DNA of 64,000 nt, taken from assembly GCF_044647545.1 (NCBI RefSeq), contig NZ_CP172818.1; one strand, 5' to 3'. The number at the start of each line of letters is the position of its first letter. The stretch's first letter is position 1. Below, one piece after another: positions 1 through 56,075 of this stretch. Both the position numbers and the translations under genes were made by a program. The DNA comes from Escherichia coli. GTDB lineage: Bacteria; Pseudomonadota; Gammaproteobacteria; Enterobacterales; Enterobacteriaceae. Under the pieces are notes generated by a model. The model did no database searches and was not told where the DNA came from. It saw nothing but the letters and a program-made list of their open reading frames with translations.

Positions 1-1008
<1,008 letters not shown>

Positions 1009-1027
1009 CTCGCACTTTATTAACAAG

Positions 1028-1052
1028 CTAAAAAGGCGCCGAAGCGCCTTTA
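1028..1052. terminator. Bidirectional rho-independent terminator between convergent bglA and gcvP
   Basis: GC hairpin aggcgcc-gaa-gcgcct with A-run on one side and T-rich on the other. Confidence 0.6.
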
Positions 1053-1073
1053 GAAGATAGTCGAATCAGTGAA

Positions 1074-3947
1074 TTACTGGTATTCGCTAATCGGTACGCA
1101 GGAGCAGAACAGGTTACGGTCGCCGTAAACATCATCCAGACGTTTCACTGTCGGCCAGTATTTGTCTGCCACGCCTGCCGGGAATACCGCAACTTCACGG
1201 CTGTACGGATGCGCCCACTCGGCGACCAGTTCGCTCTGAATGTGCGGCGCGTTCACCAGCGGGTTATCTTCCAGCGGCCAGACACCGGCTTTCACCTGGT
1301 CAATTTCTGCGCGGATAGCCAGCATCGCGTCGATAAAGCGATCCAGTTCCACTTTGCTTTCAGATTCAGTCGGTTCAACCATCAGCGTACCCGCCACCGG
1401 GAACGACATGGTCGGCGCGTGGAAACCGTAGTCGATCAGACGCTTGGCAATATCCAGTTCGCTGATGCCGGTTTCTTCTTTCAGCGGGCGAATATCGAGA
1501 ATACATTCGTGCGCCACGCGACCGTCGCGACCGGTATACAGCACCGGGAAGGCATCCTGCAGGCGGCTGGCAATATAGTTGGCGTTAAGAATTGCCACCT
1601 GGCTTGCTTTTTTCAGCCCTTCTGCGCCCATCATGCGGATGTACATCCAGCTGATTGGCAGAATGGATGCGCTACCGAACGGTGCCGCAGAAACCGCGCC
1701 CTGACGGGTTAACATGCCTTCAATTTGTACCACGCTATGACCTGGCACAAACGGTGCCAGATGCGCTTTCACGCCGATCGGTCCCATACCAGGGCCGCCG
1801 CCACCGTGCGGAATGCAGAAAGTTTTATGCAGGTTAAGGTGCGAGACGTCCGCGCCAATAAAGCCCGGTGAGGTGATGCCGACCTGGGCGTTCATGTTCG
1901 CGCCATCAAGGTAAACCTGACCGCCGAACTGATGCACGACTTCACACACTTCACGGATCGTTTCTTCATACACGCCGTGGGTGGAAGGATAGGTCACCAT
2001 GATACAGGAGAGGTTATCGCCCGCCTGTTCCGCTTTCGCGCGCAGATCAGTCAGATCGATGTTGCCGTTTTTATCACACGCCACAACCACCACCTGCATT
2101 CCTGCCATATGTGCAGAAGCGGGGTTAGTTCCGTGCGCAGAAGCCGGGATCAGGCAGATATCACGATGCCCTTCGTTGCGGCTTTCATGATAATGACGAA
2201 TCGCCAGCAGGCCCGCGTATTCGCCCTGTGCGCCAGAGTTCGGCTGCATACAAACGGCGTCGTAACCGGTCAGTTTCACCAGCCAGTCAGCCAGCTGCGC
2301 AATCATCTGCTGATAACCTTCGGCCTGCTCCGGCGGGCAGAACGGGTGCAGTTCGGCAAATTCCGGCCAGGTGATTGGGATCATCTCGGCGGCGGCGTTC
2401 AGTTTCATGGTGCAGGAACCCAGCGGGATCATCGCCTGATTCAGCGCCAGATCTTTACGCTCCAGCGAGTGCATATAGCGCATCATTTCGGTTTCGCTGT
2501 GGTAGCGATTAAACACCGGATGGGTGAGGATTTCGACGTCGCGCAGCATCGCAGGCTGAATAGAGCGGCTGTCGTGAGCCACGTCTTTGTCCAGCGTGTC
2601 GATGTCCAGGCCGTGGTTATCCCCCAGCAGTACGCTGAAAAGCTGCATCACGTTTTCACGCGTGGTGGTTTCATCAAGGGTGATCCCAACCGCGTTCAGG
2701 ATATCGCTACGCAGGTTGATTTCAGCCGCTTCGGCACGCGCCAGTACGCCCGCCTTGTCTGCCACTTCCACACACAAAGTGTCGAAATAGTGCGCATGAC
2801 GCAGTTTCAGACCTTTTTGTTGCAGGCCCGCCGCCAGGATATCGGTCAGACGGTGGATGCGGTTAGCGATACGTTTCAGGCCAACCGGGCCGTGATAAAC
2901 GGCATACAGGCTGGCGATGTTTGCCAGCAGTACCTGGGAAGTACAAATGTTGGAGTTCGCTTTCTCACGGCGAATATGTTGCTCGCGAGTCTGCATCGCC
3001 ATGCGCAGAGCGGTATTGCCAGCTGCATCTTTCGATACACCGATAATACGGCCCGGCATTGAGCGTTTGTATTCATCTTTCGCCGCAAAGAATGCTGCGT
3101 GTGGGCCACCGTAGCCCATCGGCACACCGAAGCGTTGCGCCGAACCAAAGACAATATCCGCGCCCTGTTTACCCGGCGCAGTTAACAGCACCAGCGCCAT
3201 AATATCGGCGGCGACACTGACCACAATTTTGCGTGATTTCAGTTCGCTGATGAGCGCAGTGTAGTCGTGGATTTCACCGGTTGTGCCAACCTGCTGTAAC
3301 AGCACGCCGAAGACGTCCTGATGGTCGAGCACTTTTTGCGCGTCATCGACAATCACTTCAAAACCAAAGGTTTCAGCACGAGTACGGACCACATCGAGCG
3401 TTTGCGGATGAACGTCAGAAGCAACGAAGAAGCGGTTGGCATTTTTCAGTTTGCTGACGCGTTTCGCCATCGCCATTGCTTCGGCGGCAGCAGTGGCCTC
3501 GTCCAGAAGAGAGGCAGAGGCCATATCCAGCCCGGTCAAATCCAGCGTTACCTGCTGGAAGTTGAGCAGTGCTTCAAGGCGGCCCTGGGAGACTTCAGGT
3601 TGATACGGAGTATACGCGGTATACCAGCCCGGATTTTCCAGCATGTTACGCAGAATAACCGGCGGTAGCTGCACGGCGGTGTAACCCATGCCGATGTAAG
3701 ACGTGAAGCGTTTATTGCGACTGGCAATAGCCTTGAGTTCCGCCAGCGCGGCGTATTCGGTCGCCGGTGCGCCAACCTGCGGCGGGGTCGCAAGCTGAAT
3801 ATCTTTCGGCACAATCTGGCCGGTCAGCGCGTTTAACGATTGTGCGCCAACGGCATTCAGCATTTCTTGCTGTTGCGCGGCGTCCGGTCCGATATGGCGT
3901 TCAATAAAAGCGCCGCTGTTTTCAAGCTGGCTTAACGTCTGTGTCAT
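1074..3947 (-). CDS. gcvP: Glycine dehydrogenase (decarboxylating), glycine cleavage P-protein
   Basis: 957-aa product from canonical start [10 protein letters not shown] (ORF track extends further upstream in frame); PLP-dependent P-protein sequence. Confidence 0.95.
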
Positions 3948-4065
3948 GAGCGATGGTTCCTGAAACGTGCAGTGAATTGTGAACCTCTCTCCTTGCGAAG
4001 AGAGTGAGGGTGAGGCGTAAAAGTTCCTCACCCTGATCCTCTCCCGCAGAAGAGGAATAAAGCCG

Positions 4066-4455
4066 TTACTCGTCTTCTAACAATGCTTCGTATGCGGTCG
4101 CATCCAGCAGTGATTCCAGTTCGCTTTCATCGCTGGCTTTGATTTTAAAGATCCAGCCGCCTGCATACGGTTCGCTGTTCACCAGTTCCGGGGAATCGCT
4201 CAGTGCGTCGTTTACCGCCACGATTTCACCGCTTACTGGCGCATAAATGTCTGACGCCGCTTTTACTGATTCGGCAACCGCGCAGTCATCGCCCGCGCTA
4301 ACCGTTGCGCCCACTTCCGGCAGGTCAACAAACACCATATCGCCTAACAGCTCCTGGGCATGTTCGGTGATACCAACGGTGTAAGTGCCGTCGGCTTCTT
4401 TACGCAGCCATTCGTGTTCTTTGCTGTATTTCAGTTCTGCTGGTACGTTGCTCAT
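4066..4455 (-). CDS. gcvH: Glycine cleavage system H protein (lipoyl carrier)
   Basis: 129-aa product [16 protein letters not shown]..., lipoyl-lysine region [19 protein letters not shown]. Confidence 0.95.
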
Positions 4456-4478
4456 CAATCAATCTCCAAAAAAGTAAA

Positions 4479-5573
4479 TCACGCGACGGCTTTACCGTTA
4501 CGCACAAAAACAGGTTTCGTCACTTTAACCGGCATTTCACGGTTGCGAATTTGTACAATCGCTGTTTCACCAATACCTTCCGGCACGCGCGCCAGCGCAA
4601 TGCTGTAACCCAGCGTCGGGGAGAAAGTACCGCTGGTGATAATGCCTTCATGCTGGTTGCCCTGCGCATCGGTAAAGCGTACCGGCAGTTCATTACGCAG
4701 CACGCCTTTTTCGGTCATCACCAGACCAACCAGTTTTTCTGTGCCATGCTCACGCTGCACTTCCAGGGCTTCACGACCGATGAAGTCACGATCTGCCGGT
4801 TCCCAGGCGATAGTCCAGCCCATATTGGCGGCTAAAGGAGAGATGGTTTCGTCCATCTCCTGACTATAAAGATTCATACCCGCTTCCAGACGCAGCGTGT
4901 CACGCGCGCCCAGGCCGCATGGCTTAACGCCCGCTTCCACCAGCGCGCGCCAGAAATCCGCCGCTTTTTCATTGGGCAGCGCAATTTCATAGCCCGCTTC
5001 ACCGGTATAACCAGTGGTGGCAATAAACAGATCGCCCGCCTGCACGCCAAAGAACGGTTTCATCCCTTCCACCGCCTGACGCTGGGCGTCATTAAACAGT
5101 GTGGCAGCTTTTGCCTGCGCATTCGGCCCTTGTACGGCGATCATGGAAAGGTCATCACGAACGGTAATTTCGATGCCGAAAGGTTCAGCGTGTTGGGTAA
5201 TCCAGGAGAGGTCTTTTTCGCGGGTGGCGGAGTTAACAACGAGGCGGAAGAAATCTTCAGTAAAGTAGTAGACGATGAGGTCATCTATCACACCGCCAGA
5301 GGCATTCAACATCCCCGAGTAAAGGGCTTTGCCGCTTTTGGTGAGTTTCGCCACATCGTTCGCCAGCAGATAACGCAGAAACTCCCGAGTGCGGCTGCCG
5401 CGAAGATCGACGATGGTCATATGTGACACATCAAACATTCCGGCATCGGTACGTACCGCATGATGTTCGTCGATTTGCGAACCGTAATGCAGCGGCATCA
5501 TCCAGCCGTGGAAATCCACCATGCGAGCGCCGCAAAGCGTGTGTTGTTCGTACAAAGGAGTCTGTTGTGCCAT
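4479..5573 (-). CDS. gcvT: Aminomethyltransferase, glycine cleavage T-protein
   Basis: 364-aa product from [13 protein letters not shown]...; ORF track includes an in-frame upstream extension that I do not call. Confidence 0.95.
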
Positions 5574-6020
5574 CTTGTCCTCATTGAATAAGCGGGGCTG
5601 ACAACTTTTCCATGGCGAAATTATCACCACGAAACCCAGCATCGGAGCCACTCCCGGTCCCCAACGCAATCGTTCTCTTTTGCCTGAACTTACCACCGAA
5701 ACAGACTGTTAACCATAAGGTAAAATTGATCATCACATTAGCTTATGGTTAAAAAATGCAAAAATCGCAACAGAATAAAAAACCAAAAAATGAACAAATC
5801 TCTATATAAAGATAAACAGATGAGAAAGTTAATTTGATTAATGCAATATTAAGAACTAAAAAAATGTCAAAAAACACTAAATCAAAAAATCATGACATTA
5901 GAAAATATAATGCGAAAACGGAGGTGAAATTAGTTTATTTCAAATGAGGAAAATCTCCCGGCGAAAAAACCGGGAGATGAAAGTGTGATGGGTATCAAAT
6001 AAACAACAGAGGAGAAATTT
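5574..6020 (-). promoter_or_regulatory. gcvTHP promoter/upstream regulatory region (AT-rich, ~450 bp)
   Basis: Long AT-rich non-coding interval upstream of gcvT; in E. coli this region carries GcvA/Lrp/CRP/PurR sites (not individually mapped here). Confidence 0.5.
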
Positions 6021-7223
6021 TTAACGCAGCCATTCAGGCAAATCGTTTAATCCCATTGCCTGGCGGATAAGTTGTGGTTTAACGCCAGGAAGCGTGTCGG
6101 CCAGTTTTAAACCAATATCACGCAGCAATTTTTTCGCCGGATTGGTACCGGAAAACAGATCGCGGAATCCCTGCATACCAGCCAGCATCAGCGCCGCACT
6201 GTGCTTACGGCTACGCTCATAGCGACGCAGGTAAATGTACTGCCCGATGTCTTTACCCTGACGATGCAACCGTTTCAGTTCAGCAATCAGCTCTGCAGCA
6301 TCCATAAAGCCGAGATTTACCCCCTGCCCCGCCAGCGGGTGAATAGTATGCGCGGCGTCGCCCACCAGCGCCAGACGGTGTGCGGCAAACTGGCGCGCAT
6401 AACGCCCCGTTAGCGGGAACACCAGGCGCTCACTTTCAACCTTGCATAAGCCCAGGCGATTATCAAAAGCGATATTTAACGCGCGATTAAATTCGTCTTC
6501 GCCTGCCTGCTGCATCCGCTGCGCTTCCTCTGGCGACAGTGACCAGACAATCGAGCAAAGATGCGGATCGCTAAGCGGCAAAAAGGCCAGAATGCCTTCG
6601 CCATGAAAAACCTGCCGCGCCACCGCATCATGCGGTTCTTCCGTGCGAATGGTCGCTACCAGCGCGTGATGCTGATAATCCCAGAAAGTCAGCGGAATAT
6701 CGGCTTTGTTGCGCAACCAGGAATTAGCGCCGTCCGCGCCAATCACCAGACGCGCCGTTAACATACTGCCATCTTTCAACGTCAGGAAGGTTTCATTTTC
6801 TCCCCAGGCGACCTGCTGTAATTCTGCGGGGGCCAACAGAGTGATATCTGACGACTGCTGCGCTTTGTTCCACAGCGCGTAGTGAATCACCGAGTTTTCA
6901 ACGATATGCCCAAGATGGCTATAGCCCATGCTTTGATCGTCAAACGAAATGTGACCAAAACTGTCTTTGTCCCACACTTCCATACCGTGATAACAACTGG
7001 CCCTACGAGAGAGAATGTCCTGCCAGACGCCAAGACGGGTGAGTAATTTTTCGCTGGCGGCATTGATAGCCGAAACGCGCAGTTGTGGTGGTGCATCCGC
7101 CGCCAGAGGTTCCGGTACGCGCTGCTCCAGTACGGCAACGCGTAAGCCGCTACCCTGCAAGCCGCAGGCAACCGCCAGCCCCACCATGCCGCCGCCAACA
7201 ATGGCTACATCAACACTTTGCAT
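6021..7223 (-). CDS. ubiI: FAD-dependent 2-octaprenylphenol hydroxylase
   Basis: 400-aa product with N-terminal FAD-binding GGGMVG motif; matches VisC/UbiI. Confidence 0.9.
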   Translation of the reverse strand: MQSVDVAIVGGGMVGLAVACGLQGSGLRVAVLEQRVPEPLAADAPPQLRVSAINAASEKLLTRLGVWQDILSRRASCYHGMEVWDKDSFGHISFDDQSMGYSHLGHIVENSVIHYALWNKAQQSSDITLLAPAELQQVAWGENETFLTLKDGSMLTARLVIGADGANSWLRNKADIPLTFWDYQHHALVATIRTEEPHDAVARQVFHGEGILAFLPLSDPHLCSIVWSLSPEEAQRMQQAGEDEFNRALNIAFDNRLGLCKVESERLVFPLTGRYARQFAAHRLALVGDAAHTIHPLAGQGVNLGFMDAAELIAELKRLHRQGKDIGQYIYLRRYERSRKHSAALMLAGMQGFRDLFSGTNPAKKLLRDIGLKLADTLPGVKPQLIRQAMGLNDLPEWLR

Positions 7224-7245
7224 TGTTTATTCCTTAAAACCGCCT

Positions 7246-8424
7246 TCAACGCGCCACCCACCCGAGGGTGCGCTGCGCCAGCACATCGCGTGCTGGGGTG
7301 AATAATTCCATTGCCATCAGCCCGATGTTGCGCCCGACAACCAGCGGCCCCCAACGGTTGGCAAAAAGATGTACAAGGCTGTCCGTGACGCCGATGGTTG
7401 CTTCGCGATCGCGCTGTCGACGCTGCTGATAACGGCACAATACGCCGTAATCACCCATGTCTTCTCCGCGCTCCTGCGCCTGAGTCAGGGTTTCCGCAAG
7501 GCTCATGACATCTCGCATACCGAGGTTGAACCCTTGCCCGGCAATCGGGTGCAGAGTTTGCGCCGCATTGCCCACCAGCACGGTACGATGGGTAATAGGT
7601 CTGGCGGCGCGGGTTAACGCCAGCGGATAAGCACTGCGTTTACCAGCGTGGGTAATTTTCCCAAGTCGCCAACCAAAGGCCGACTGGAGTTCACGGCAAA
7701 ACTTCTCGTCGCTCCAAGACAGTACCTCTTCGCGCCGTTCCAGTGGATGACACCAGACCAGCGAACAGCGTCCGTCAGACATCGGCAACATCGCCAGCGG
7801 GCCATATTGTGTAAAGCGTTCAAAAGCGCGCCCTTCATGCGCAACGGAAGTCGCAACGTTGGCAATCACAGCCAGTTGTTCGTAAGGCTCCTGCTGCCAG
7901 TCAACGCCGCACACGGTGGCTAACGCTGAATGGGTGCCATCAGCGGCTACCAGCACGCAGCCCGTCAGCGTCTCGCCACTCTCCAGCGTCACTTCAACGT
8001 GACTCTGAGTACGGGCAACGTTAGCCACGCGATCAGGACAATGCAGCGTTACGCCAGGTGCTTTGCGCAGCAATGCAAACAGCCGTTGCCCGACATTATG
8101 CAATTCGACAACCTGCCCCAGCGCCGCCAGTTGGTAATCTTCTGCGGCGAGGGTGACGAATCCGGCATGACCACGATCGCTGACATGCACGGTAGTGATG
8201 GCGGTTGCGCAATCAGCCAGAGATTGCCAGACGCCGATGCGCGCCAGTTGCTGACAGGTACCCGCCGCCAGCGCAATAGCCCGTCCATCAAAGCCCGGAT
8301 GAGCATGTGACTCTGGCGCAGTCGCTTCAATCAAATGTACCGGCAGCGCCCCGTGACTTAACCGGGAAATAGCCAGCGCCAGCGTCGCGCCCGCCATGCC
8401 GCCACCGACGATGATTACGCTCAT
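7246..8424 (-). CDS. ubiH: 2-octaprenyl-6-methoxyphenol hydroxylase
   Basis: 392-aa FAD monooxygenase, N-terminal IVGGGMAG; matches UbiH. Confidence 0.9.
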   Translation of the reverse strand: MSVIIVGGGMAGATLALAISRLSHGALPVHLIEATAPESHAHPGFDGRAIALAAGTCQQLARIGVWQSLADCATAITTVHVSDRGHAGFVTLAAEDYQLAALGQVVELHNVGQRLFALLRKAPGVTLHCPDRVANVARTQSHVEVTLESGETLTGCVLVAADGTHSALATVCGVDWQQEPYEQLAVIANVATSVAHEGRAFERFTQYGPLAMLPMSDGRCSLVWCHPLERREEVLSWSDEKFCRELQSAFGWRLGKITHAGKRSAYPLALTRAARPITHRTVLVGNAAQTLHPIAGQGFNLGMRDVMSLAETLTQAQERGEDMGDYGVLCRYQQRRQRDREATIGVTDSLVHLFANRWGPLVVGRNIGLMAMELFTPARDVLAQRTLGWVAR

Positions 8425-9746
8425 TGCTTTCTCGCAGCAGCCATCAACGCTTCGATTTCTTCCGGCTTTTTCACCACGCTGGCGGTGAGGTTTTCGTTGC
8501 CGGTTTCGGTAATCACAATGTCGTCTTCAATACGAATGCCGATACCGCGATATTGTTCTGGCACTTCTGCATCCGGCGCAATATACAGACCAGGCTCTAC
8601 GGTCAGTACCATCCCCGGTTCCAGAATACGCGAGCGATCCTGACCATAAACACCAACGTCATGAACATCCAGTCCTAACCAGTGGCTAAGGCCATGCATA
8701 AAGAAAGGACGATGGGCGTTCTGAGCGATCAGTTCATCAACATCACCTTTCAGGATGCCGAGTTTTACCAGGCCGCTAACCATGATGCGCACCACTTCAC
8801 CAGTGACTTCCTGCATGGAAGTTCCCGGACGATACAGCCGCAGGCTGGTTTCAAGAGACTCCAGCACAATGTCGTAGATTTCACGCTGGGCCAGGGTGAA
8901 TTTGCCGTTGACCGGGAAGGTGCGGGTAATATCGCCCGCGTAACCTTTGTATTCACAACCCGCGTCAATCAACACCAGGTCACCGTCGCGCAGTTCACTC
9001 TCGTTTTCGGTGTAGTGCAGAATGCAGCCATTTTCACCGCTGCCGACAATGGTGTTATAGGAAGGATAGCGCGCACCGTGGCGGTTAAATTCGTGGTGAA
9101 TTTCGCCTTCCAGGTGGTACTCGAACATTCCCGGACGGCATTTTTCCATCGCCCGGGTATGCGCCAGGGCGGTGATTTCCCCCGCGCGGCGAAGTACGGC
9201 AATCTCTTCTGGTGATTTGAACAGGCGCATTTCATGAACAATGGGACGCCAGTCGATCATCGTTGCCGGGGCAGTGAGATTCTGTCGCGAGCCTTTACGC
9301 AGCTTTTCCAGCGCGCTGTTCACGATTTCATCAGCATAGGTATATTCGCCCTGAGCGTGATAAACCACATCCAGACCATTAAGCAGTTGATAAAGTTGCT
9401 GATTGATTTCGCTGAATGCCAGTGCGCGGTCAACGCCCAGTTTCTCTGGCGCGGCATCCTGGCCTAAGCGACGACCAAACCAGATCTCTGCCGTCAGGTC
9501 GCGAACGCGGTTAAACAAAACGCTGTGGTTATGAGTGTCGTCGCTTTTAATCAGCACCAGCACCGCTTCCGGTTCGTTAAAGCCGGTGAAGTACCAGAAG
9601 TCACTGTTCTGACGATAGGGGTATTCGCTGTCGGCGCTACGTGTTACTTCTGGTGCAGCAAAAATCAGCGCGGCGCTGCCGGGTTGCATTTGCTCCACCA
9701 GGGCCTGACGGCGACGCTGAAACTCTTGCCGGGATATCTCACTCAT
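8421..9746 (-). CDS. pepP: Xaa-Pro aminopeptidase (aminopeptidase P)
   Basis: 441-aa product from MSEISRQEFQRRRQAL; M24 family; 4-bp overlap with ubiH. Confidence 0.95.
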   Translation of the reverse strand: MSEISRQEFQRRRQALVEQMQPGSAALIFAAPEVTRSADSEYPYRQNSDFWYFTGFNEPEAVLVLIKSDDTHNHSVLFNRVRDLTAEIWFGRRLGQDAAPEKLGVDRALAFSEINQQLYQLLNGLDVVYHAQGEYTYADEIVNSALEKLRKGSRQNLTAPATMIDWRPIVHEMRLFKSPEEIAVLRRAGEITALAHTRAMEKCRPGMFEYHLEGEIHHEFNRHGARYPSYNTIVGSGENGCILHYTENESELRDGDLVLIDAGCEYKGYAGDITRTFPVNGKFTLAQREIYDIVLESLETSLRLYRPGTSMQEVTGEVVRIMVSGLVKLGILKGDVDELIAQNAHRPFFMHGLSHWLGLDVHDVGVYGQDRSRILEPGMVLTVEPGLYIAPDAEVPEQYRGIGIRIEDDIVITETGNENLTASVVKKPEEIEALMAAARKQ

Positions 9747-9771
9747 AACACTCTCCTTACGTTTTTTGTTT

Positions 9772-10350
9772 TTAGTGTAGAGTCGGTTTTTGTACTTCTG
9801 GCGCGGTCGGTTGCGGATGAGTAAAGGTGTCGTGGCATAACAGCGCGGCAACACGAACGTATTCGATGATCTCTTCAAGCGACATTTCAAGCTCTTCCTG
9901 ATCTTCGTCTTCGTCGTAGCCCAGCTGCGCGATGTTACGCAGATCGTCGATGGCTTCACCGGTTTCTCCGGTCACTTTGTCCAGCTTCGGTTGCGTAACG
10001 CCAAGACCAAGCAGGAAGTGATTGACCCAACCTGCCAGCGCATCAGCCCGATCGAAAACGCTGACATCATCGCCATCAGGCAGATAAAGCTGAAAAAGGA
10101 AGCCGTCATCCTGCAGGGCATCGCTGGTGGCAGAGTGCATTTTACGCAGTGCCTGTGCCAGCTCATGACCGAAAGCCATGCCTTCGTTCGTCAGGTCGTG
10201 AAGTAGCGGCAGCCATGAGCTGTCATCGTTACCGCCACATATCATCCCACTGATTAAACCATGCATCTCAGCAGGGGTCAGACCCGTCCCTTGTTGGTTC
10301 AGATACTGGTTCATTTCGTTGTAACCAGGCATTTCGTTCTGTATAGACAT
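9772..10350 (-). CDS. ygfB: UPF0149 family protein YgfB
   Basis: 192-aa product [15 protein letters not shown]... Confidence 0.85.
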
Positions 10351-10451
10351 AAGCATTCGTCGTCAAAGGGAGGAATATTCATGATATGCTACCACTTTGG
10401 GCCCTGGTGGACCAGAAAAGGGCTTGTCTCTTCTCATCAGGGTAGCTATAG

Positions 10452-10847
<396 letters not shown>

Positions 10848-10888
10848 CACTTTTCGGTTTACTGTGGTAGAGTAACCGTGAAGACAAA

Positions 10889-11072
10889 ATTTCTCTGAGA
10901 TGTTCGCAAGCGGGCCAGTCCCCTGAGCCGATATTTCATACCACAAGAATGTGGCGCTCCGCGGTTGGTGAGCATGCTCGGTCCGTCCGAGAAGCCTTAA
11001 AACTGCGACGACACATTCACCTTGAACCAAGGGTTCAAGGGTTACAGCCTGCGGCGGCATCTCGGAGATTCC
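10889..11072 (+). ncRNA. ssrS: 6S RNA (RNA polymerase sigma70-holoenzyme regulator)
   Basis: Sequence atttctctgagatgttcgcaagcgggccagtcccctgagccgatatttcatacc...ggagattccc recognised as E. coli 6S RNA; -10-like tagagtaacc just upstream. Confidence 0.9.
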
Positions 11073-11146
11073 CTTCTTATCTGGCACCAGCCATGACGCA
11101 ACTACCCGAACTCCCACTGACATTATCCCGACAAGAAATCCGCAAA

Positions 11147-11695
11147 ATGATTCGGCAACGTCGTCGTACGTTAACGCCGGAACAACAGCAGGAAATGGGT
11201 CAACAAGCCGCTACCCGGATGATGACTTATCCCCCGGTGGTGATGGCACATACGGTCGCTGTATTCCTCTCTTTTGATGGCGAACTCGACACCCAGCCAC
11301 TCATAGAACAACTCTGGCGCGCCGGTAAGCGCGTATATCTTCCAGTTTTGCATCCCTTTAGTGCCGGTAATTTGCTGTTCCTGAATTACCATCCGCAAAG
11401 CGAACTGGTGATGAACAGGTTGAAGATCCATGAGCCAAAACTGGATGTGCGTGACGTGCTACCCCTTTCCCGATTAGACGTGTTGATCACACCGCTGGTC
11501 GCCTTTGATGAGTACGGTCAGCGCCTGGGAATGGGCGGTGGTTTTTATGATCGGACCTTACAAAACTGGCAGCACTATAAAATGCAACCGGTGGGTTATG
11601 CGCATGATTGTCAGTTGGTGGAAAAACTCCCCGTTGAAGAGTGGGATATCCCTCTTCCTGCGGTGGTTACACCGTCGAAAGTCTGGGAGTGGTAA
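11147..11695 (+). CDS. ygfA: 5-formyltetrahydrofolate cyclo-ligase
   Basis: 182-aa product MIRQRRRTLTPEQQQEMGQQAA...; lies immediately downstream of ssrS (ORF track shows a longer in-frame ORF overlapping 6S RNA). Confidence 0.85.
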   Translation: MIRQRRRTLTPEQQQEMGQQAATRMMTYPPVVMAHTVAVFLSFDGELDTQPLIEQLWRAGKRVYLPVLHPFSAGNLLFLNYHPQSELVMNRLKIHEPKLDVRDVLPLSRLDVLITPLVAFDEYGQRLGMGGGFYDRTLQNWQHYKMQPVGYAHDCQLVEKLPVEEWDIPLPAVVTPSKVWEW

Positions 11696-11754
11696 GGGCG
11701 ACACACCTGCATCGCCCTGATTGACATCGTTGATTCTTTAACCTAATTTAGTGA

Positions 11755-11897
11755 GTAAGGGTAAGGGAGGATGACTCCTCCCCTGAGACTGACTGTTAAT
11801 AAGCTGGGAAACTTATGAGTAACAGTACAATCAGTATGATGACAAGTCGCATCATAACCCTTCTCCTTCAAGCCCTCGCTTCGGTGAGGGCTTTACC
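11755..11897 (+). ncRNA. sibC: SibC antitoxin sRNA antisense to ibsC (boundaries approximate)
   Basis: Antisense to ibsC; ends at intrinsic terminator hairpin gccctcgc-ttcg-gtgagggc followed by ttt (11872-11894). Confidence 0.55.
11796..11855 (-). CDS. ibsC: Type I toxin IbsC (19-aa hydrophobic peptide)
   Basis: Minus-strand translation gives MMRLVIILIVLLLISFPAY*; too short for the ORF track. Confidence 0.8.
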   Translation of the reverse strand: MMRLVIILIVLLLISFPAY

Positions 11898-12030
11898 GTT
11901 ACAGCCCCATGCTGCCCTGCCATCGTAAATCCCCATTAAATAAACACAACGCATTGATCTGACTTTGATTTATTTTCTGGAGCAGACTCGCAAAGTAGAA
12001 TGCGCAATGCGGCAACGGTGTGGAGAAGGG

Positions 12031-12063
12031 ATAAAAAAATCGGGCAAGTCAGTGACCTGCCCG
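12031..12063 (-). terminator. Rho-independent terminator downstream of serA
   Basis: Hairpin cgggcaagtcagtgacctgcccg; on the minus strand it is followed by a T-run (plus-strand ataaaaaaat). Confidence 0.65.
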
Positions 12064-12084
12064 TTAATTTTCAGAGAAGGGGAA

Positions 12085-13317
12085 TTAGTACAGCAGACGG
12101 GCGCGAATGGTACCCGGAATAGCTTTCATTGCCTGCAGCGCTTTTTCGGCAACGTCTTCGTCGGCTTCAATATCAATAACTACATAACCCATCTGGGCGG
12201 AAGTTTGTAGATATTGCGCGGCGATGTTGACGCCCTGCTCGGCAAAAATTTTGTTGAGCGCAGTTAGCACGCCCGGACGGTTTTCGTGGATGTGCATCAG
12301 ACGACGCCCACCGTGCAGTGGCAGCGAGACTTCCGGGAAGTTCACCGCAGAGAGCGTTGAGCCATTGTCAGAATACTTGATCAATTTACCCGCAACTTCC
12401 AGGCCGATATTCTCCTGCGCTTCCTGAGTCGAACCGCCAATGTGTGGCGTCAGAAGGACGTTGTCGAATTCACACAGCGGAGAGGTAAATGGATCGCTAT
12501 TGGTTGCCGGTTCCGTCGGGAATACGTCGATTGCCGCCCCCGCCAGATGTTTGCTCGCCAGCGCGTCACACAGCGCCGGAATATCCACCACAGTACCGCG
12601 CGAAGCATTAATCAGCAGCGAGCCGGGCTTCATTAGTGAAATCTCTTTCGCACTCATCATATTTTTGGTGGACGGATTCTCTGGTACATGCAGACTCACC
12701 ACATCGCTCATATTCAGCAGGTCAGAAAGATGCTGTACCTGAGTGGCGTTGCCCAGCGGCAGTTTGTTTTCAATATCATAAAAGTAAACATACATTCCCA
12801 GCGATTCAGCCAGAATGCCCAATTGAGTACCAATATGACCATAGCCGATGATACCCAGCTTTTTGCCGCGCGCTTCAAAAGAACCCGCCGCCAGTTTGTT
12901 CCACACGCCACGGTGCGCTTTAGCATTGGCTTCCGGCACGCCGCGCAATAGCAGCAGCAGTTCGCCAATCACCAGCTCCGCAACAGAGCGCGTATTTGAG
13001 AACGGTGCGTTAAATACCGGGATACCGCGTTTTGCCGCCGCATCCAGATCAACCTGGTTTGTTCCGATACAGAAACAGCCAATAGCGACCAGTTTTTCTG
13101 CGGCGTTGATCACGTCTTCAGTCAGATGGGTACGGGATCGCAGGCCGATGAAGTGGGCATCGCGGATGGATTCTTTTAATTGTTCATCATCCAGCGCGCC
13201 TTTGTGAAATTCGATGTTGGTGTAACCCGCTGCACGAAGGCTTTCAAGCGCCTTTTGGTGCACGCCTTCTACCAGCAGAAACTTAATCTTGTCTTTCTCC
13301 AGCGATACCTTTGCCAT
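12085..13317 (-). CDS. serA: D-3-phosphoglycerate dehydrogenase
   Basis: 410-aa product MAKVSLEKDKIKFLLVEGVHQ... with C-terminal ACT domain. Confidence 0.95.
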   Translation of the reverse strand: MAKVSLEKDKIKFLLVEGVHQKALESLRAAGYTNIEFHKGALDDEQLKESIRDAHFIGLRSRTHLTEDVINAAEKLVAIGCFCIGTNQVDLDAAAKRGIPVFNAPFSNTRSVAELVIGELLLLLRGVPEANAKAHRGVWNKLAAGSFEARGKKLGIIGYGHIGTQLGILAESLGMYVYFYDIENKLPLGNATQVQHLSDLLNMSDVVSLHVPENPSTKNMMSAKEISLMKPGSLLINASRGTVVDIPALCDALASKHLAGAAIDVFPTEPATNSDPFTSPLCEFDNVLLTPHIGGSTQEAQENIGLEVAGKLIKYSDNGSTLSAVNFPEVSLPLHGGRRLMHIHENRPGVLTALNKIFAEQGVNIAAQYLQTSAQMGYVVIDIEADEDVAEKALQAMKAIPGTIRARLLY

Positions 13318-13572
13318 TTACCCAATCCTGTCTTTTGAAATGTTGTGTGCGGATTTGCATCCGCCTTTCAACATATCAAAAAATAATATTGCGGCAATAT
13401 GAACGTTTGCGTCGCGATGTTGAGGAAATATCACGCAAAGGTATTTCTTGGATGAATATGCTGGTTTAGAGGATTTATTTAGAGCAATCGACAATAGCCA
13501 GGTAAAAACGTGACACATGTCACCAAATTTAATGAAGAGAATTTTTTTAACGGGGGAGGTTCCCCCGTCAGA

Positions 13573-14232
13573 TCATTTCACAATGGTTTTGACACCGTCA
13601 GGTGTGCCAATCAGCGCAACGTCCGCGCCACGGTTAGCAAACAAGCCAACAGTCACCACGCCAGGAATCGCATTTATGGCGTTTTCCATCGCTATCGGGT
13701 CAAGGATTTCCATGCCGTGGACGTCGAGGATCACGTTGCCGTTATCGGTCACCACGCCCTGACGGTATTCCGGACGACCGCCCAGTTTCACCAGCTGGCG
13801 CGCCACTGCACTACGTGCCATCGGGATAACTTCTACTGGCAGCGGGAATTTGCCCAGAATATCAACCTGCTTGGAGGCGTCGGCAATACAGATAAATTTT
13901 TCCGCAACCGAAGCAATGATTTTTTCACGGGTCAGCGCCGCGCCGCCGCCTTTGATCATTTGCATGTGGCCGTTGATTTCATCTGCGCCATCAACGTAGA
14001 TGCCAAGGCTGTCGACTTCGTTGAGATCAAAAACGTGAATGCCGAGGCTTTTCAGTTTTTCAGTGGAAGCATCTGAACTGGAAACGGCCCCTTCAATCTG
14101 GCCTTTCATTGTACCGAGCGCGTCAATAAAGTGTGCGGCGGTGGAACCTGTACCTACACCAACAATGGTGCCGGGCTGAACATACTGAAGTGCCGCCCAT
14201 CCTACTGCTTTTTTCAATTCATCCTGGGTCAT
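13573..14232 (-). CDS. rpiA: Ribose-5-phosphate isomerase A
   Basis: 219-aa product [32 protein letters not shown]... Confidence 0.95.
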
Positions 14233-14287
14233 GATCGTTTCGCCTGTGGTATGAAATTTCACACGCATTATATACAAAAAAAGCGAT

Positions 14288-14518
14288 TCAGACCCCGTTG
14301 GCAAGCCGCGTGGTTAACTCATCCATAAAATATCGCGCAATGGCGGGCATCCCCTTTCGCCCGGCAAATAAAGCATACAACGGTCTGGGTATGCCGCTCC
14401 ACGGTGCAAACAGGCGCACCAGTTCACCGTTCGCAAGCCCCTGTTTACAGGCAAATTGAGGCAATAACGCCACGCCATTCAACCCAACCGGGACGCGAAC
14501 TCGCCGAGCAAAATGCAT
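14288..14518 (-). pseudogene. yqfE: C-terminal fragment of a LysR-family regulator
   Basis: 76-aa ORF resembling only the C-terminal tail of a LysR-type effector domain; no N-terminal HTH portion upstream. Confidence 0.6.
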
Positions 14519-14584
14519 TAGCGCAAATCCCTGATCTTATTACACAAGTATTTAATCATTATCTTTAATATAAAAGGAGTTATT

Positions 14585-14845
14585 ATGTCTATTAAGCAAA
14601 ATTTATTTGCCGCATTATTTCTTTGCACTCTCACAGGACACGCATTTGCCGCAACCGAGATACACAAACCGGACAATAATCTTGAACAGTTATCAAAAGT
14701 GAGCATGTCCACACACAATAGCAATCCAGCGGGCGTTGAAAGCCAAATCAAAAGAGAAAGCGGAAGAGTTACAAGCCAGCAATTACTACATCAGTTCTTT
14801 CTCCGTAAAAATTATATCCACGCCACTGTAATTTTCTATAAATAG
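14585..14845 (+). CDS. Hypothetical small exported protein (86 aa)
   Basis: Strong SD (aaggag) 7 nt upstream of ATG; N-terminal signal-peptide-like segment MSIKQNLFAALFLCTLTGHAFAA. Confidence 0.45.
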   Translation: MSIKQNLFAALFLCTLTGHAFAATEIHKPDNNLEQLSKVSMSTHNSNPAGVESQIKRESGRVTSQQLLHQFFLRKNYIHATVIFYK

Positions 14846-15528
14846 CCCCTCTGTTTAACGGAAGCATGGAATTATTCCATGCTCCTCTGCCAAAATGAAA
14901 TAAAAAATGAAAAAAGCTAATCTTACAGGTACGTTGGTTTGCTTTGTCGCATGCCTTATTTTTTTGTCGTCCGGTGATATTTTTCGTGAAAAGCCAATCG
15001 CTCTAATATGGTTCCTTCGACAAAACATACTCTTTTTTACGGGAACTCTTGCGTGGTGTCTGATGACGCTGACGATGTGTTTATCGTTGCGTTCATCATG
15101 GCTTAACAAAGTGCTGGGCGGTCTGGATAAAGTATGGCGAATCACATAAGTGGGCAGGAATATGCGCCATAGCGTTTGCTTTCGCCCACTGGCTGGATGA
15201 AAAATTACCCCAGTTATTCGTCGCCTTTGGCTGGCTTACTCACCCTGGTAAAATCGTTGATATTAACCTGACGCCAGTACAAGAAAATTGGCTTCATGCG
15301 GGACTGTTAGCGGGTGAATGCGCAATGTTTATTATTATAGCGATGGTTTGCGTATCTCTTAGCAAAAGAGTTCCCTATCATTTATTTCATCTTGTTCACC
15401 GTTTGTTCCCCGTCTTTTATCTGGCAATTGCCTTTCATGTGTTTACTGCTTTGTTTAAATCATACTGGTGGAACTCCTGCTGCGTATTTATTAATTTTAA
15501 TTACTATTCCGGGCGTCTTTGCGGCTTT

Positions 15529-15537
15529 CATTTCGCT
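15529..15537. repeat. Left copy of 9-bp target-site duplication (catttcgct) flanking IS1
   Basis: Identical 9-mer directly abuts both IS1 ends. Confidence 0.85.
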
Positions 15538-16307
15538 GGTAATGACTCCAACTTACTGATAGTGTTTTATGTTCAGATAATGCCCGATGACTTTGTCATG
15601 CAGCTCCACCGATTTTGAGAACGACAGTGACTTCCGTCCCAGCCTTGCCAGATGTTGTCTCAGATTCAGGTTATGTCGCTCAATGCGCTGAGTGTAACGC
15701 TTGCTGATTACGTGCAGCTTTCCCTTCAGGCGGGATTCATACAGCGGCCAGCCATCCGTCATCCATACCACGACCTCAAAGGCCGACAGCAGGCTCAGAA
15801 GACGCTCCAGTGTGGCCAGAGTGCGTTCACCGAAGACGTGCCACAACCGTCCTCCGTATCCTGTCATACGCGTAAAACAGCCAGCGCTGACGTGATTTAG
15901 CACCGACGTAGCCCCACTGTTCGTCCATTTCAGCGCAGACAATCACATCACTGCCCGGCTGTATGCGCGAGGTTACCGACTGCGGCCTGAGTTTTTTAAT
16001 AAAGTGACGTAAAATCGTGTTGAGGCCAACGCCCATAATGCGGGCGGTCGCCCGGCATCCAACACCATTCATGGCCATATCAATGATTTTCTGGTGTGTA
16101 CCGGGTTGAGAAGCGGTGTAAGTGAACTGCAGTTGCCATGTTTTACGGCAGTGAGAGCAGAGATAGCGCTGATGTCCGGCAGTACTTTTACCGTTACGCA
16201 CCACGCCTTCAGTAGCTGAGCAGGAGGGACAACTGATGGAGATGGAAGCCACGGGAGCACCTCAAAAACACCATCATACACTAAATCAGTAAGTTGGCAC
16301 CATTACC
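15538..16307 (-). mobile_element. IS1-family insertion sequence (770 bp), divergent isoform
   Basis: Terminal inverted repeats ggtaatgactccaacttactgat / atcagtaagttggcaccattacc; InsA and InsB homologous ORFs on minus strand; flanked by 9-bp direct repeat. Confidence 0.92.
15553..16252 (-). pseudogene. insAB: IS1 insA-insB region; insA fused in-frame to insB' but insB then frameshifted (defective transposase)
   Basis: ORF 15827-16252 = [13 protein letters not shown]...[16 protein letters not shown]...[13 protein letters not shown]; 4-nt insertion at the A6C slippery site (cgtcactttattaaaaaactc) puts insA in the insB frame; a further indel (~2 nt) shifts frame so the rest of InsB is ORF 15553-15942. 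Confidence 0.8.
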
Positions 16308-16316
16308 CATTTCGCT
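16308..16316. repeat. Right copy of 9-bp target-site duplication (catttcgct) flanking IS1
   Basis: Identical to 15529-15537. Confidence 0.85.
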
Positions 16317-17082
16317 GCTGAAATTCAAACGGTAGTAAAAACAAGCATCAGGCTACCATTAAAAACATTGTTAACCATCCAGGACAAATTACCGAAGTCA
16401 CCCTGGAACTGGAACATGCCATCGACTATTCTCCGGGGCAGTTTGCATTCTTAACGTTCGCACACAGTAAAGAATCTCACCCTTTTACTATCGCTTCATA
16501 CACCAAAGAGAAGAACACGTTGCGCTTTGCCATCAAAAATTTAGGGGATTATACCTCTACCCTTGCATCCTCGATAAAAATCGGCCAGTCCGCCTTCGTT
16601 GAAGGGCCATGGGGAAAGTTTGATTTAGACTCTCCCTTGCTCCCACCAGGTCTGGATAGCAGGAGGCATCGGCATTACCCCCTTTATCGCCCAGCTTGAG
16701 TATCGTAAACATCATGGCGCGTCCTCTGTTCCTGTGGATCTCTGGTATTACGTCAGCCGAAGCGAGGATGCCTGGTATGTTGATAAACTGACCTCACTTT
16801 GTGCCCAGGCCAGGGTCACACTGCATCTGCTTGATGCGCATAAAGGTGAGCGCCTACAGGCGCACTATCTTACTGATAAAATAGCAAATAAAGGTGACAC
16901 CCATTTCTGGTTTTGCGGCCCACAGAGTTTTGCCAAAGCGCTCAGCAAAGGGTTATATGAAAATGGGATTGCCAGCCAAAACTTCCATTACGACCGTTTT
17001 TGTATGCGTTAAATGCTCTGTACCCAACGCAAAATTGTGTCATAGTGCAGGAAAAAGCATTTACCAGGAGCAGACAACAGCA

Positions 17083-36485: not shown

Positions 36486-36779
36486 AAATTATCCTTATTT
36501 TATTTTTAGGGTACCGTCCGGCGGTAAAAATAAAATACTCGTGCGGTTTAATGAAAGCAATTGAGAAGAAAAACCCCATAAACCAAAATAATAAAACCTT
36601 AAATAACAACAATATGAAATTGATATTTTTAAAGTCAACTTTGTATTTGTTATATTTATCACAAAATCAACATTTTGTTTGTTATTGTATTTGTGATGCA
36701 TATCTCTATTTATTTATTGAATGTTCGAAAACATACTTTTCTAATGCAATGTTTTTTCGCTATACCCCTTTATAGATTC

Positions 36780-37321
36780 TGAATTCTCACCTGTCGGCTA
36801 TTTTCTCCTTACCTCATGTGACATATTCCCCATTTTACTCAAAAAAAATTTATATAAAAGCACCTTTTTCATAAACCTTATTTCCCCCAAAAAAATCTTT
36901 TTTTATCCCTTTGGGCGTTTTTCCTGTTTTTTCCCCCTTTTTTTCTTTTTTACCCCTTAAAAAAAGGAACGCGGCATTTTTTTGCCCTACGAAAAAATCG
37001 TAAAATTTGCCGAGCCGGGTCTGGGTTTTAAGATCCCGTTTTTGAAAAGGGGAAAAAAATTTCCACCCGTAATAAGGCGGGGGTTTATCAGGGATTAAAG
37101 CCTTCAACCCCCCACCAGAAACCGGCAAAAAAAAAAATTGAGTGAGCTTCCACATAAAAAATTCAGAAAAAGGCGCGGTTTATACCACCTACAACACCAT
37201 TGAAGCATTAAAAGATCGTCTGATTGTCCGTCAGTTGCCAACTCAACTGGAGAATTCCCATATACATACAACTACAAAACAACAAACATAAACAAAACCC
37301 ACAAAAAAAAATATCTCTAAA
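36780..37321. other. Compositionally aberrant homopolymer-rich non-coding segment (origin unresolved; possible assembly/synthetic artefact)
   Basis: Dense runs of A7-11, T5-9, C5-6, G5; no credible ORF, RBS or RNA fold; cmtB-tktA spacer is ~885 bp here versus a few hundred bp as I recall for K-12. Confidence 0.5.
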
Positions 37322-37350
37322 GTAATAAAAAGGGCCGCTTTCGCGGCCCT
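37322..37350 (-). terminator. Rho-independent terminator immediately downstream of tktA
   Basis: Minus-strand hairpin agggccgc-gaaa-gcggccct followed by ttttattac. Confidence 0.75.
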
Positions 37351-37371
37351 TCTCACAAAGCATCTTACCGA

Positions 37372-39363
37372 TTACAGCAGTTCTTTTGCTTTCGCAACAA
37401 CGTTGTCAACGGTGAAGCCGAACTCTTCAAACAGCAGCTCTGCCGGAGCAGATTCACCGAAGGTGGTCATGCCGACGATAGCACCGTTCAGGCCAACATA
37501 CTTGTACCAGTAGTCAGCAATACCCGCTTCCACCGCAACGCGTGCAGTAACCGCTTTCGGCAGGACGGATTCACGGTAAGCCGCATCCTGCTTGTCGAAT
37601 GCATCGGTAGACGGCATGGAAACCACGCGCGCCTTCACGCCTTCGGCAGTCAGTTTTTCGTAGGCAGCAACCGCCAGTTCAACTTCCGAACCGGTCGCGA
37701 TGAAGATCAGTTCCGGCTGACCGGCACAGTCTTTCAGCACATAACCACCGCGCGCGATGTTTGCCAGCTGCTCTTCAGTACGCTCCTGCTGCGCCAGGTT
37801 CTGACGGGAGAGGATAAGCGCAGTCGGGCCGTCCTGACGCTCAACGCCGTATTTCCATGCCACTGCAGATTCAACCTGGTCACACGGACGCCATGTAGAC
37901 ATGTTCGGGGTCACGCGCAGTGAAGCGACCTGCTCAACCGGCTGGTGAGTCGGGCCATCTTCGCCCAGACCGATGGAGTCGTGGGTGTAAACCATCACCT
38001 GACGCTGTTTCATCAGCGCAGCCATACGTACGGCGTTACGTGCGTATTCCACGAACATCAGGAAGGTGGAGGTGTACGGCAGGAAGCCACCGTGCAGGGA
38101 GATACCGTTAGCAATCGCGGTCATACCGAACTCGCGAACACCGTAGTGGATGTAGTTACCCGCAACATCTTCGTTGATTGCTTTAGAACCAGACCACAGG
38201 GTCAGGTTAGACGGTGCCAGGTCAGCAGAGCCGCCGAGGAATTCCGGCAACAGCGGGCCGAACGCTTCAATCGCATTCTGAGACGCTTTACGGCTGGCGA
38301 TTTTCGCCGGATTAGCCTGCAGTTTAGCGATGAATTCTTTCGCTTTGGCATCGAAGTCAGACGGCATTTCGCCTTTCATACGGCGGGTAAATTCAGCGGC
38401 TTCCTGCGGATAAGCTTTCGCGTAAGCAGCGAATTTCTCGTTCCATGCGGATTCTTTCGCCTGGCCTGCTTCTTTCGCATCCCACTGAGCATAGATTTCA
38501 GACGGGATTTCGAACGGTGCATATTTCCAGCCCAGCTGTTCGCGGGTCAGGGCAATTTCAGCGTCGCCCAGCGGCGCACCGTGGGAGTCGTGCGTACCGG
38601 CTTTGTTCGGTGAACCGAAACCGATGATGGTTTTGCACATCAGCAGGGACGGTTTGTCAGTCACTGCGCGCGCTTCTTCTACTGCGCGTTTGATGGATGC
38701 CGCGTCATGACCGTCGATGCCGCGAATAACGTGCCAGCCGTAAGCTTCGAAACGCATTGCGGTGTCGTCGGTGAACCAGCCTTCAACGTGACCATCGATA
38801 GAGATACCGTTGTCATCGTAGAACGCAATCAGTTTACCCAGCTTCAGCGTACCCGCCAGAGAACAAACTTCGTGGGAGATGCCTTCCATCATGCAGCCGT
38901 CGCCCATGAAGGCGTAGGTGTAGTGGTCGACGATGTCGTGGCCCGGACGGTTAAACTGCGCCGCCAGCGTTTTTTCTGCAATCGCCATACCGACTGCGTT
39001 GGCAATACCCTGACCCAGCGGACCTGTAGTGGTTTCCACGCCAGCGGTGTAACCCACTTCCGGGTGGCCCGGAGTTTTAGAGTGCAGCTGACGGAAGTTT
39101 TTCAGTTCTTCCATCGGCAGATCGTAACCGGTGAGGTGCAGCAGGCTGTAGATCAGCATGGAGCCGTGGCCGTTGGACAGCACGAAGCGGTCACGGTCAG
39201 CCCAGGACGGATTCTGCGGGTTGTGTTTCAGGAAATCACGCCACAGGACTTCGGCAATGTCAGCCATACCCATAGGGGCACCCGGGTGACCGGATTTGGC
39301 TTTCTGTACTGCGTCCATGCTCAGCGCACGAATAGCATTGGCAAGCTCTTTACGTGAGGACAT
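37372..39363 (-). CDS. tktA: Transketolase 1
   Basis: 663-aa product [41 protein letters not shown]... Confidence 0.95.
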
Positions 39364-41425: not shown

Positions 41426-41528
41426 AAGGGTTGGATTTGCGAAACACAAGTATGCGCTAATTATCGCCTTAAATGAAAAGAGGGCCGCATCAAGGACTAA
41501 CACAGGTCCCATACCACCAAACTCCAAC

Positions 41529-43542
<2,014 letters not shown>

Positions 43543-54946: not shown

Positions 54947-56075
54947 ATTACCGCCGCTGAGTCTCTACATTCACATCCCGTGGTGCGTGCAGAAATGCCC
55001 GTACTGCGATTTCAACTCTCACGCGTTGAAAGGAGAAGTGCCGCACGACGATTATGTTCAGCATCTGCTTAACGATCTGGACAACGATGTGGCTTACGCT
55101 CAGGGCCGTGAAGTAAAGACAATCTTTATTGGCGGTGGTACGCCGAGCCTGCTTTCCGGCCCGGCGATGCAAACGCTGCTGGACGGCGTGCGTGCGCGTT
55201 TGCCGCTGGCAGCGGATGCAGAAATTACTATGGAAGCGAACCCTGGTACGGTAGAAGCCGATCGCTTTGTCGATTATCAGCGTGCTGGTGTGAACCGCAT
55301 CTCTATTGGTGTGCAGAGTTTTAGCGAAGAAAAGCTGAAACGACTTGGGCGCATTCATGGCCCGCAAGAAGCGAAACGAGCTGCGAAGCTGGCGAGCGGT
55401 TTAGGGTTACGTAGCTTTAACCTTGATTTGATGCATGGGCTGCCGGATCAATCACTGGAAGAGGCGCTAGGCGATCTGCGCCAGGCTATTGAACTGAATC
55501 CGCCGCATCTTTCCTGGTATCAACTGACCATCGAACCTAATACGCTGTTTGGCTCTCGCCCGCCGGTGCTGCCGGACGACGATGCGTTGTGGGATATATT
55601 CGAACAGGGGCATCAGTTATTAACCGCAGCGGGCTATCAGCAGTATGAAACATCCGCTTACGCCAAACCAGGTTATCAGTGCCAGCACAATCTCAACTAC
55701 TGGCGTTTTGGCGACTACATCGGTATTGGCTGCGGCGCGCACGGCAAAGTGACCTTCCCGGATGGGCGCATTCTGCGTACCACCAAAACGCGTCATCCGC
55801 GTGGTTTTATGCAGGGAAGATATCTGGAAAGCCAGCGTGATGTCGAAGCCGCAGATAAGCCGTTTGAGTTCTTTATGAATCGCTTCCGTCTGTTGGAAGC
55901 CGCGCCGCGCGTGGAGTTTAGCCAGTATACTGGCCTTTCTGAAGAAGTTATTCGCTCTCAGTTAGACGAGGCCATCGCTCAGGGTTATCTCACAGAATGT
56001 GCGGATTACTGGCAGATAACGGAACATGGTAAATTATTCTTAAACTCACTTCTTGAATTATTCCTCGCTGAGTAA
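54939..56075 (+). CDS. hemW: Radical SAM heme chaperone HemW
   Basis: 378-aa product with CxxxCxxC ([14 protein letters not shown]). Confidence 0.9.

Follow-up and report, generated by a model that had tools for sequence, protein, structure and literature searches.

IS1 transposes by means of InsAB', a transposase that is produced by -1 ribosomal frameshifting at an A6C motif and that binds the 23-bp ends of the element; 9-bp staggered cuts and gap repair duplicate the target, and InsA has an established role as repressor of IS1. Fused-frame mutants with an extra A in the A6 run are known from studies of IS1 frameshifting. The type IS1, the IS1A of Escherichia coli K-12 (NC_000913.3 19796-20563), possesses 23-bp terminal inverted repeats, a GTG-start insA, the A6C frameshift motif, insB' and a 9-bp target duplication, all of which recur in the element described here. 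Insertions of IS1 with 9-bp duplications are textbook material, and IS1X2, IS1X3 and IS1X4 are isoform names in use in papers that do not give the sequences. Bacterial flavocytochromes of the NOX/FRE type combine a Ferric_reduct transmembrane domain with FAD_binding_8/6 and NAD_binding_1 domains, in the same order as the gene that is interrupted here.

The DNA analysed, hereafter the window, is a stretch of 64,000 nucleotides (64 kb) of E. coli in which one IS1 interrupts one such gene. With a probability of roughly 0.9, its features are explained by a common non-IS1A isoform that inserted once in the ancestor of a clade, the window copy being inherited and defective, with private indels that are more likely non-biological than not.

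The IS1 element and its target-site duplication

An initial annotation of the window had described an IS1-family element of 770 bp, with a perfect 9-bp flanking duplication, an end that differs from that of IS1A, and an isoform distinct from IS1A; each of these points was borne out. Reading of the sequence from 15400 to 16450 and a repeat finder agree in placing the element at 15538-16307 (770 bp), with insA and insB on the minus strand. The features at its boundaries are:

15529-15537, no strand: left copy of the target-site duplication, CATTTCGCT (sequence reading, repeat finder; single copy in SCU-301)
15538-15560, plus strand: IRR, the insB-distal end, 23 nt, GGTAATGACTCCAACTTACTGAT (repeat finder, consensus scan, alignment)
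16285-16307, minus strand: IRL, the insA-proximal end, 23 nt, GGTAATGGTGCCAACTTACTGAT on the minus strand (repeat finder, consensus scan)
16308-16316, no strand: right copy of the target-site duplication, CATTTCGCT (sequence reading, repeat finder)

The arm at 16285-16307 reads ATCAGTAAGTTGGCACCATTACC, and according to the repeat finder the two 23-nt arms are complementary at 20 of 23 positions (87%). They have the form that is typical of the family, imperfect terminal inverted repeats of about 23 bp that start GGT(A/G)ATG...CCAACTTA, and both are intact. The length is likewise that of the family (about 768 bp): the natural copy at this site has 768 bp, to which the window copy adds 4 and from which it lacks 2. 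Matches to the IS1 end consensus occur at two places in the window, namely the two ends of this element, with none expected in shuffled sequence. CATTTCGCT is present exactly twice in the 64 kb, directly abutting one end of the IS1 each time; any 9-mer is expected about once per window by chance, and the chance of finding CATTTCGCT at both exact boundaries is about 4^-9. The repeat finder extends the direct repeat to 10 nt (CATTTCGCTG) because the first G of the IS1 equals the base after the right-hand CATTTCGCT; the canonical GGT...ACC ends, together with the unoccupied site in SCU-301, set the duplication at 9 bp. A 9-bp direct duplication that is represented by a single copy at the unoccupied site is a further mark of the family.

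IS copies commonly break or collapse in assemblies, and other anomalous joins are present in the window, so that two alternatives to a simple insertion have to be weighed: that the element marks a chimeric or otherwise false assembly join, or that it is one terminus of a larger composite transposon. The flanks, however, are collinear with the empty site once the IS1 and one copy of the duplication are removed, and the same structure is found in closed genomes; moreover, the scan for the IS1 end consensus revealed neither further IS1 copies nor a composite structure in the 64-kb window, which contains only this one IS1. The probability left to a join or a composite is negligible.

Alignment of the element from end to end with the IS1A of K-12 gives 93.1% nucleotide identity, with 53 substitutions. 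IRL differs from its IS1A counterpart at two positions (GGTAATGGTGCC in the window and GGTGATGCTGCC in K-12) and IRR at one. The isoform is a common one and probably already has a name: among 9,599 E. coli records in which IS1 was matched, 689 contain a copy of at least 99% identity, and the near-identical copy of E138, from which the window copy differs by 2 substitutions and 5 gap columns, is designated 'IS1-like element IS1X4 family transposase' by PGAP. Within that set of E. coli records, no full-length copy is more than 99.2% identical to the window IS1; therefore neither of the private indels described below exists elsewhere in the set.

The interrupted flavocytochrome gene and its empty site

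At this locus of the window, rpiA is followed by a LysR remnant, a DUF1471 gene and the interrupted gene, after which come argP and scpA. The interrupted gene consists of two parts:

14907-15537, plus strand: 5' part, encoding a ferric-reductase-like haem-binding transmembrane domain (Pfam, alignment)
16317-17012, plus strand: 3' part, encoding FAD-binding and NAD(P)-binding domains (Pfam, alignment)

Comparison with the empty site in related strains, as the initial annotation had proposed, is afforded by SCU-301, in which an intact, uninterrupted ORF of 441 aa contains a single CATTTCGCT at nucleotides 624-632 of the gene, beginning in codon 208. The intact SCU-301 protein has a Ferric_reduct domain (PF01794) at residues 45-174, FAD_binding_8/FAD_binding_6 (PF08022/PF00970) at residues 225-313 and NAD_binding_1 (PF00175) at residues 324-420: a haem-binding transmembrane domain followed by FAD and NAD(P) domains in one polypeptide. 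By this domain architecture the target gene is a NOX/FRE-like flavocytochrome, with predicted binding of haem and flavin; the RefSeq annotation is 'ferredoxin reductase family protein'. A query consisting of both flanks and one copy of the duplication located the gene in 247 of 5,426 complete E. coli genomes. Insertion took place in codons 208-211, and the flavin domains of the 441-aa protein are thereby cut off from its membrane haem domain.

The initial annotation had interpreted the structure as transposition into a flavocytochrome pseudogene and not an assembly join. The transposition and the identity of the gene stand, given the intact 441-aa gene of SCU-301; the prior pseudogene does not. 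Across 5.6 kb of flanking sequence, just 2 substitutions and not a single indel separate the occupied allele of ECONIH1 from the empty allele of SCU-301; in nature the IS1 is therefore the sole inactivating lesion, in a gene that was no pseudogene beforehand.

In ECONIH1, the 3' half of the split gene has a RefSeq annotation of its own, 'FAD-binding oxidoreductase' (4840-5556 of the examined stretch), with a TTG start 14 nt inside the IRL end of the IS1. This is probably a convenience of annotation rather than an expressed fusion.

Probable inheritance of the insertion

ECONIH1 matches the window in isoform, nucleotide position, orientation and duplication, and approximately 33 complete E. coli genomes carry the insertion (33 cover at least 80% of window positions 14300-17000, including the IS1). 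From the identical junctions and near-identical flanks we infer a single ancestral insertion shared by the clade, although repeated insertion at a hot spot may account for the copies instead of one ancestral event. A recent insertion, private to the window genome and not inherited, might be suspected from the perfect duplication and the intact inverted repeats, which look fresh; it is highly improbable in light of the identical junctions, orientation and isoform in about 33 independently sequenced complete genomes, and of derivatives of the insertion in DETEC-S586 and EC200461 that show it to have a history.

According to the preferred explanation, a single ancestral event, a non-IS1A isoform would have transposed once, in the ancestor of an E. 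coli clade that includes ECONIH1, and would have landed in codons 208-211 of the chromosomal flavocytochrome gene between rpiA and argP. Gap repair after 9-bp staggered cuts would have duplicated CATTTCGCT; the haem-binding membrane domain would have been split from the FAD/NAD domain, with inactivation of the gene; and the window would have inherited (or copied) the ancestral insertion.

The site has been modified in some genomes. DETEC-S586 (NZ_CP116074.1; 1733 of the examined stretch) retains the insertion but has lost 820 bp immediately beside IRR, a typical IS1-adjacent deletion that took away part of the DUF1471 gene together with the 5' half of the flavocytochrome gene. EC200461 (NZ_CP142956.1; about 710-1477 of the examined stretch) has an IS1 at the same site, with the ends and the first 360 nt or so of the ECONIH1 isoform and an IS1A-like middle (33 differences), annotated by PGAP as IS1A family; judged by its sequence, it looks like the product of gene conversion by another IS1 copy, not of a second insertion. 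Among the matches listed for the flank query, several genomes match the right flank only.

Transposase genes of the window copy

Three changes set the window copy apart from that of ECONIH1: the insertion of 4 bp, the loss of 2 bp and, at 16049, a synonymous substitution. The reading frames and the sites of the two indels are:

15827-16252, minus strand: 141-aa ORF in which the InsA domains read straight into the insB' frame (ORF list, Pfam, NCBIfam)
15553-15942, minus strand: insB remnant, a 129-aa ORF out of frame with the upstream part (ORF list, Pfam)
15992-16001, minus strand: A6C programmed-frameshift motif (plus-strand T6 at 15992-15997) with the private AATA insertion at 15998-16001 (alignment)
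15839-15840, minus strand: private 2-bp deletion (GC of GTGCGCC) inside insB (alignment to ECONIH1)

Translation indicates that the 4-bp insertion brings insB' into phase 0 with insA, and that alone it yields a fused transposase of 233 aa. The 2-bp deletion, 160 bp downstream of the insertion, shifts the frame, and a stop follows ...TVVARLR at residue 141. Reversion of both the insertion and the deletion restores the InsAB' of ECONIH1 exactly. The 141-aa ORF contains Zn_ribbon_InsA and HTH_Tnp_IS1 in full and, of the 131 model positions of DDE_Tnp_IS1, the first 37; the 129-aa ORF contains positions 31-131 of DDE_Tnp_IS1 (PF03811, 1.3e-20; PF12759, 6.4e-27; PF03400, 1.2e-50). The NCBIfam model NF033558 (IS1 family transposase; 8e-43) matches both ORFs. 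The homology to InsA (zinc ribbon and helix-turn-helix) and to InsB (IS1-type DDE) that characterizes the family is present; the arrangement of a functional transposase, with insA and insB' in phases 0 and -1, a -1 frameshift at A6C and an InsAB' of about 232 aa, is not.

The window IS1 is a member of the family by descent and a defective copy. Fusion of insA to insB' by the 4-bp insertion would be cut short by the 2-bp deletion, so that the product would end at 141 aa, before the catalytic DDE domain. As written, the element is predicted to be non-autonomous; since its ends are intact, it could possibly be mobilized in trans by another IS1. The 141-aa product, which keeps the whole DNA-binding module of InsA, would be at most an InsA-like repressor.

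Origin of the private indels

The indels of the IS1 are part of a larger pattern. Within the rpiA-argP island (1.9 kb), 8 private indel events stand against 4 substitutions, whereas natural relatives have 0 indels there; besides the two in the IS1, extra private frameshifts are found in the target gene at 15140 (+1), 15471 (-2), 16326 (+1) and 16627 (+1). Positions 1-14480 of the window, on the other hand, are 100% identical to ECONIH1 save for a single intergenic replacement of 101 bp (1008-1010); over the full window, the core genes are identical to those of ECONIH1, with about 5 substitutions in some 60 kb.

The island also contains, at 14480/14481, a clean deletion of 1346 bp relative to both ECONIH1 and SCU-301, which removes most of the LysR regulator gene and nearly all of the adjacent gene for an FMN-dependent NADH-azoreductase. 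Its junction has no obvious microhomology and is absent from the complete E. coli genomes searched. An IS1-mediated adjacent deletion was rejected as its cause, because the deletion ends about 1 kb away from the IS1 (14480/14481 as opposed to 15538).

Low-complexity sequence has taken the place of accessory genes in other parts of the window. A prohibitin-family gene has become a homopolymer smear in its 5' part (36833-37170), and 57 nt of A/C filler (37255-37311) stand in for the remainder; an 899-bp segment with a hypothetical gene between speB and speA is reduced to 90 nt ending in A34 (41476-41565); and a 3.2-kb TRAP transporter operon is reduced to 1157 nt of A/C-rich low-complexity sequence with a garbled permease remnant and poly-A (56109-57265). 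The poly-A runs in these fillers reach A34 and longer, and each filler stops exactly where the next conserved gene resumes. A search of complete E. coli genomes found none that shares the aberrant sequence at 36600-37400 or 56000-57400: no match exceeded approximately 89%, and part of the second segment was unmatched.

Smaller changes are present as well. The DUF1471 gene (14585-14845) has a +1 insertion at 14750 and a -1 deletion at 14804, 54 nt apart and both private, which leave the ORF at 86 aa with about 18 residues recoded. A C6-to-C5 frameshift in scpA (methylmalonyl-CoA mutase) at 18347 and a TGG-to-TAG change in yggP (W43*) at 34484 are among the very few differences from ECONIH1 in otherwise identical genes.

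Because the corruption of accessory segments extends across the window amid perfect core genes, the +4 and -2 indels of the IS1 and the four extra frameshifts of the target gene are probably not biological. We know of no natural mutational process that leaves perfect core genes together with garbled accessory segments, and the window resembles a derivative of an ECONIH1-like chromosome that has been corrupted, edited or generated by a model. Homopolymer error of Nanopore or 454 sequencing was rejected as a sufficient cause: 14.5 kb of core sequence, homopolymers included, is 100% identical to ECONIH1, and several of the changes are multi-base and lie outside homopolymers.

If the indels are genuine, InsAB' would first have become constitutively fused and hyperactive through the 4-bp insertion and would then have been silenced by the 2-bp deletion, leaving an extended InsA-like protein. 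Such a history has some appeal, in that the insertion alone yields an uninterrupted fused transposase of 233 aa, a natural fused copy (A7 for A6) exists in E138, and the deletion lies in a GCGC dinucleotide repeat, a plausible site of slippage. It is nevertheless unlikely, since the insertion is found in none of the other IS1 copies searched, the density of private indels in the 1.9-kb island is without parallel in natural relatives, and the smear and poly-A filler of the accessory genes elsewhere in the window are unknown in E. coli genomes. Specifically, the +4 variant was found at none of the more than 70,000 IS1 places in 5,426 complete E. coli genomes (best identity at full coverage, 96.7%), nor in GTDB species representatives (where the canonical motif, as a positive control, was found in 93 stretches) or JGI metagenome contigs. 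Less likely still, by about half, is the proposal that the indels are real and that the genome keeps the 141-aa InsA-plus-linker protein as a brake acting in trans on its other IS1 copies. Accepting instead that the indels are probably artefacts, the 770-bp length, the broken transposase and the extra frameshifts of the target gene belong to the pattern of accessory corruption, and are not to be taken as evolution yet.

Comparison with known IS1 insertions

Both the kind of feature and this particular instance are known, the latter being annotated in genomes that are already public. It is a lineage marker in dozens of public E. coli genomes, marking a clade, and it indicates that the accessory operon between rpiA and argP (LysR, azoreductase, DUF1471, flavocytochrome) is dispensable and decaying in that clade.

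In comparison with the type IS1, the window copy is 770 bp long instead of the 768 bp of IS1A, and its transposase frame is broken. The closest known relative is the 768-bp copy of ECONIH1, found also in about 32 other genomes, to which the window copy is identical in site, orientation, duplication and both inverted repeats, with 99.87% identity over aligned bases; unlike the window copy, the natural copies at this site keep the programmed frameshift and an intact InsAB' of 232 aa. A copy of the same isoform with a different frame arrangement is found in E138 (NZ_AP022351.1; 301-1069 of the examined stretch), at the 3' end of yhfS: it is 769 bp long, has A7 in place of A6 at the frameshift site, and is annotated as a single unframeshifted transposase of 232 aa, that is, a naturally fused InsAB'. 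The 4-bp insertion of the window copy has the same outcome as the extra A of such fused-frame elements, in that insA continues into insB' without slippage; the change, however, is +4 (with an extra codon, L to FI) rather than +1, and, unlike the fused-frame variants, the window copy also has the downstream -2 deletion that abolishes the catalytic domain.
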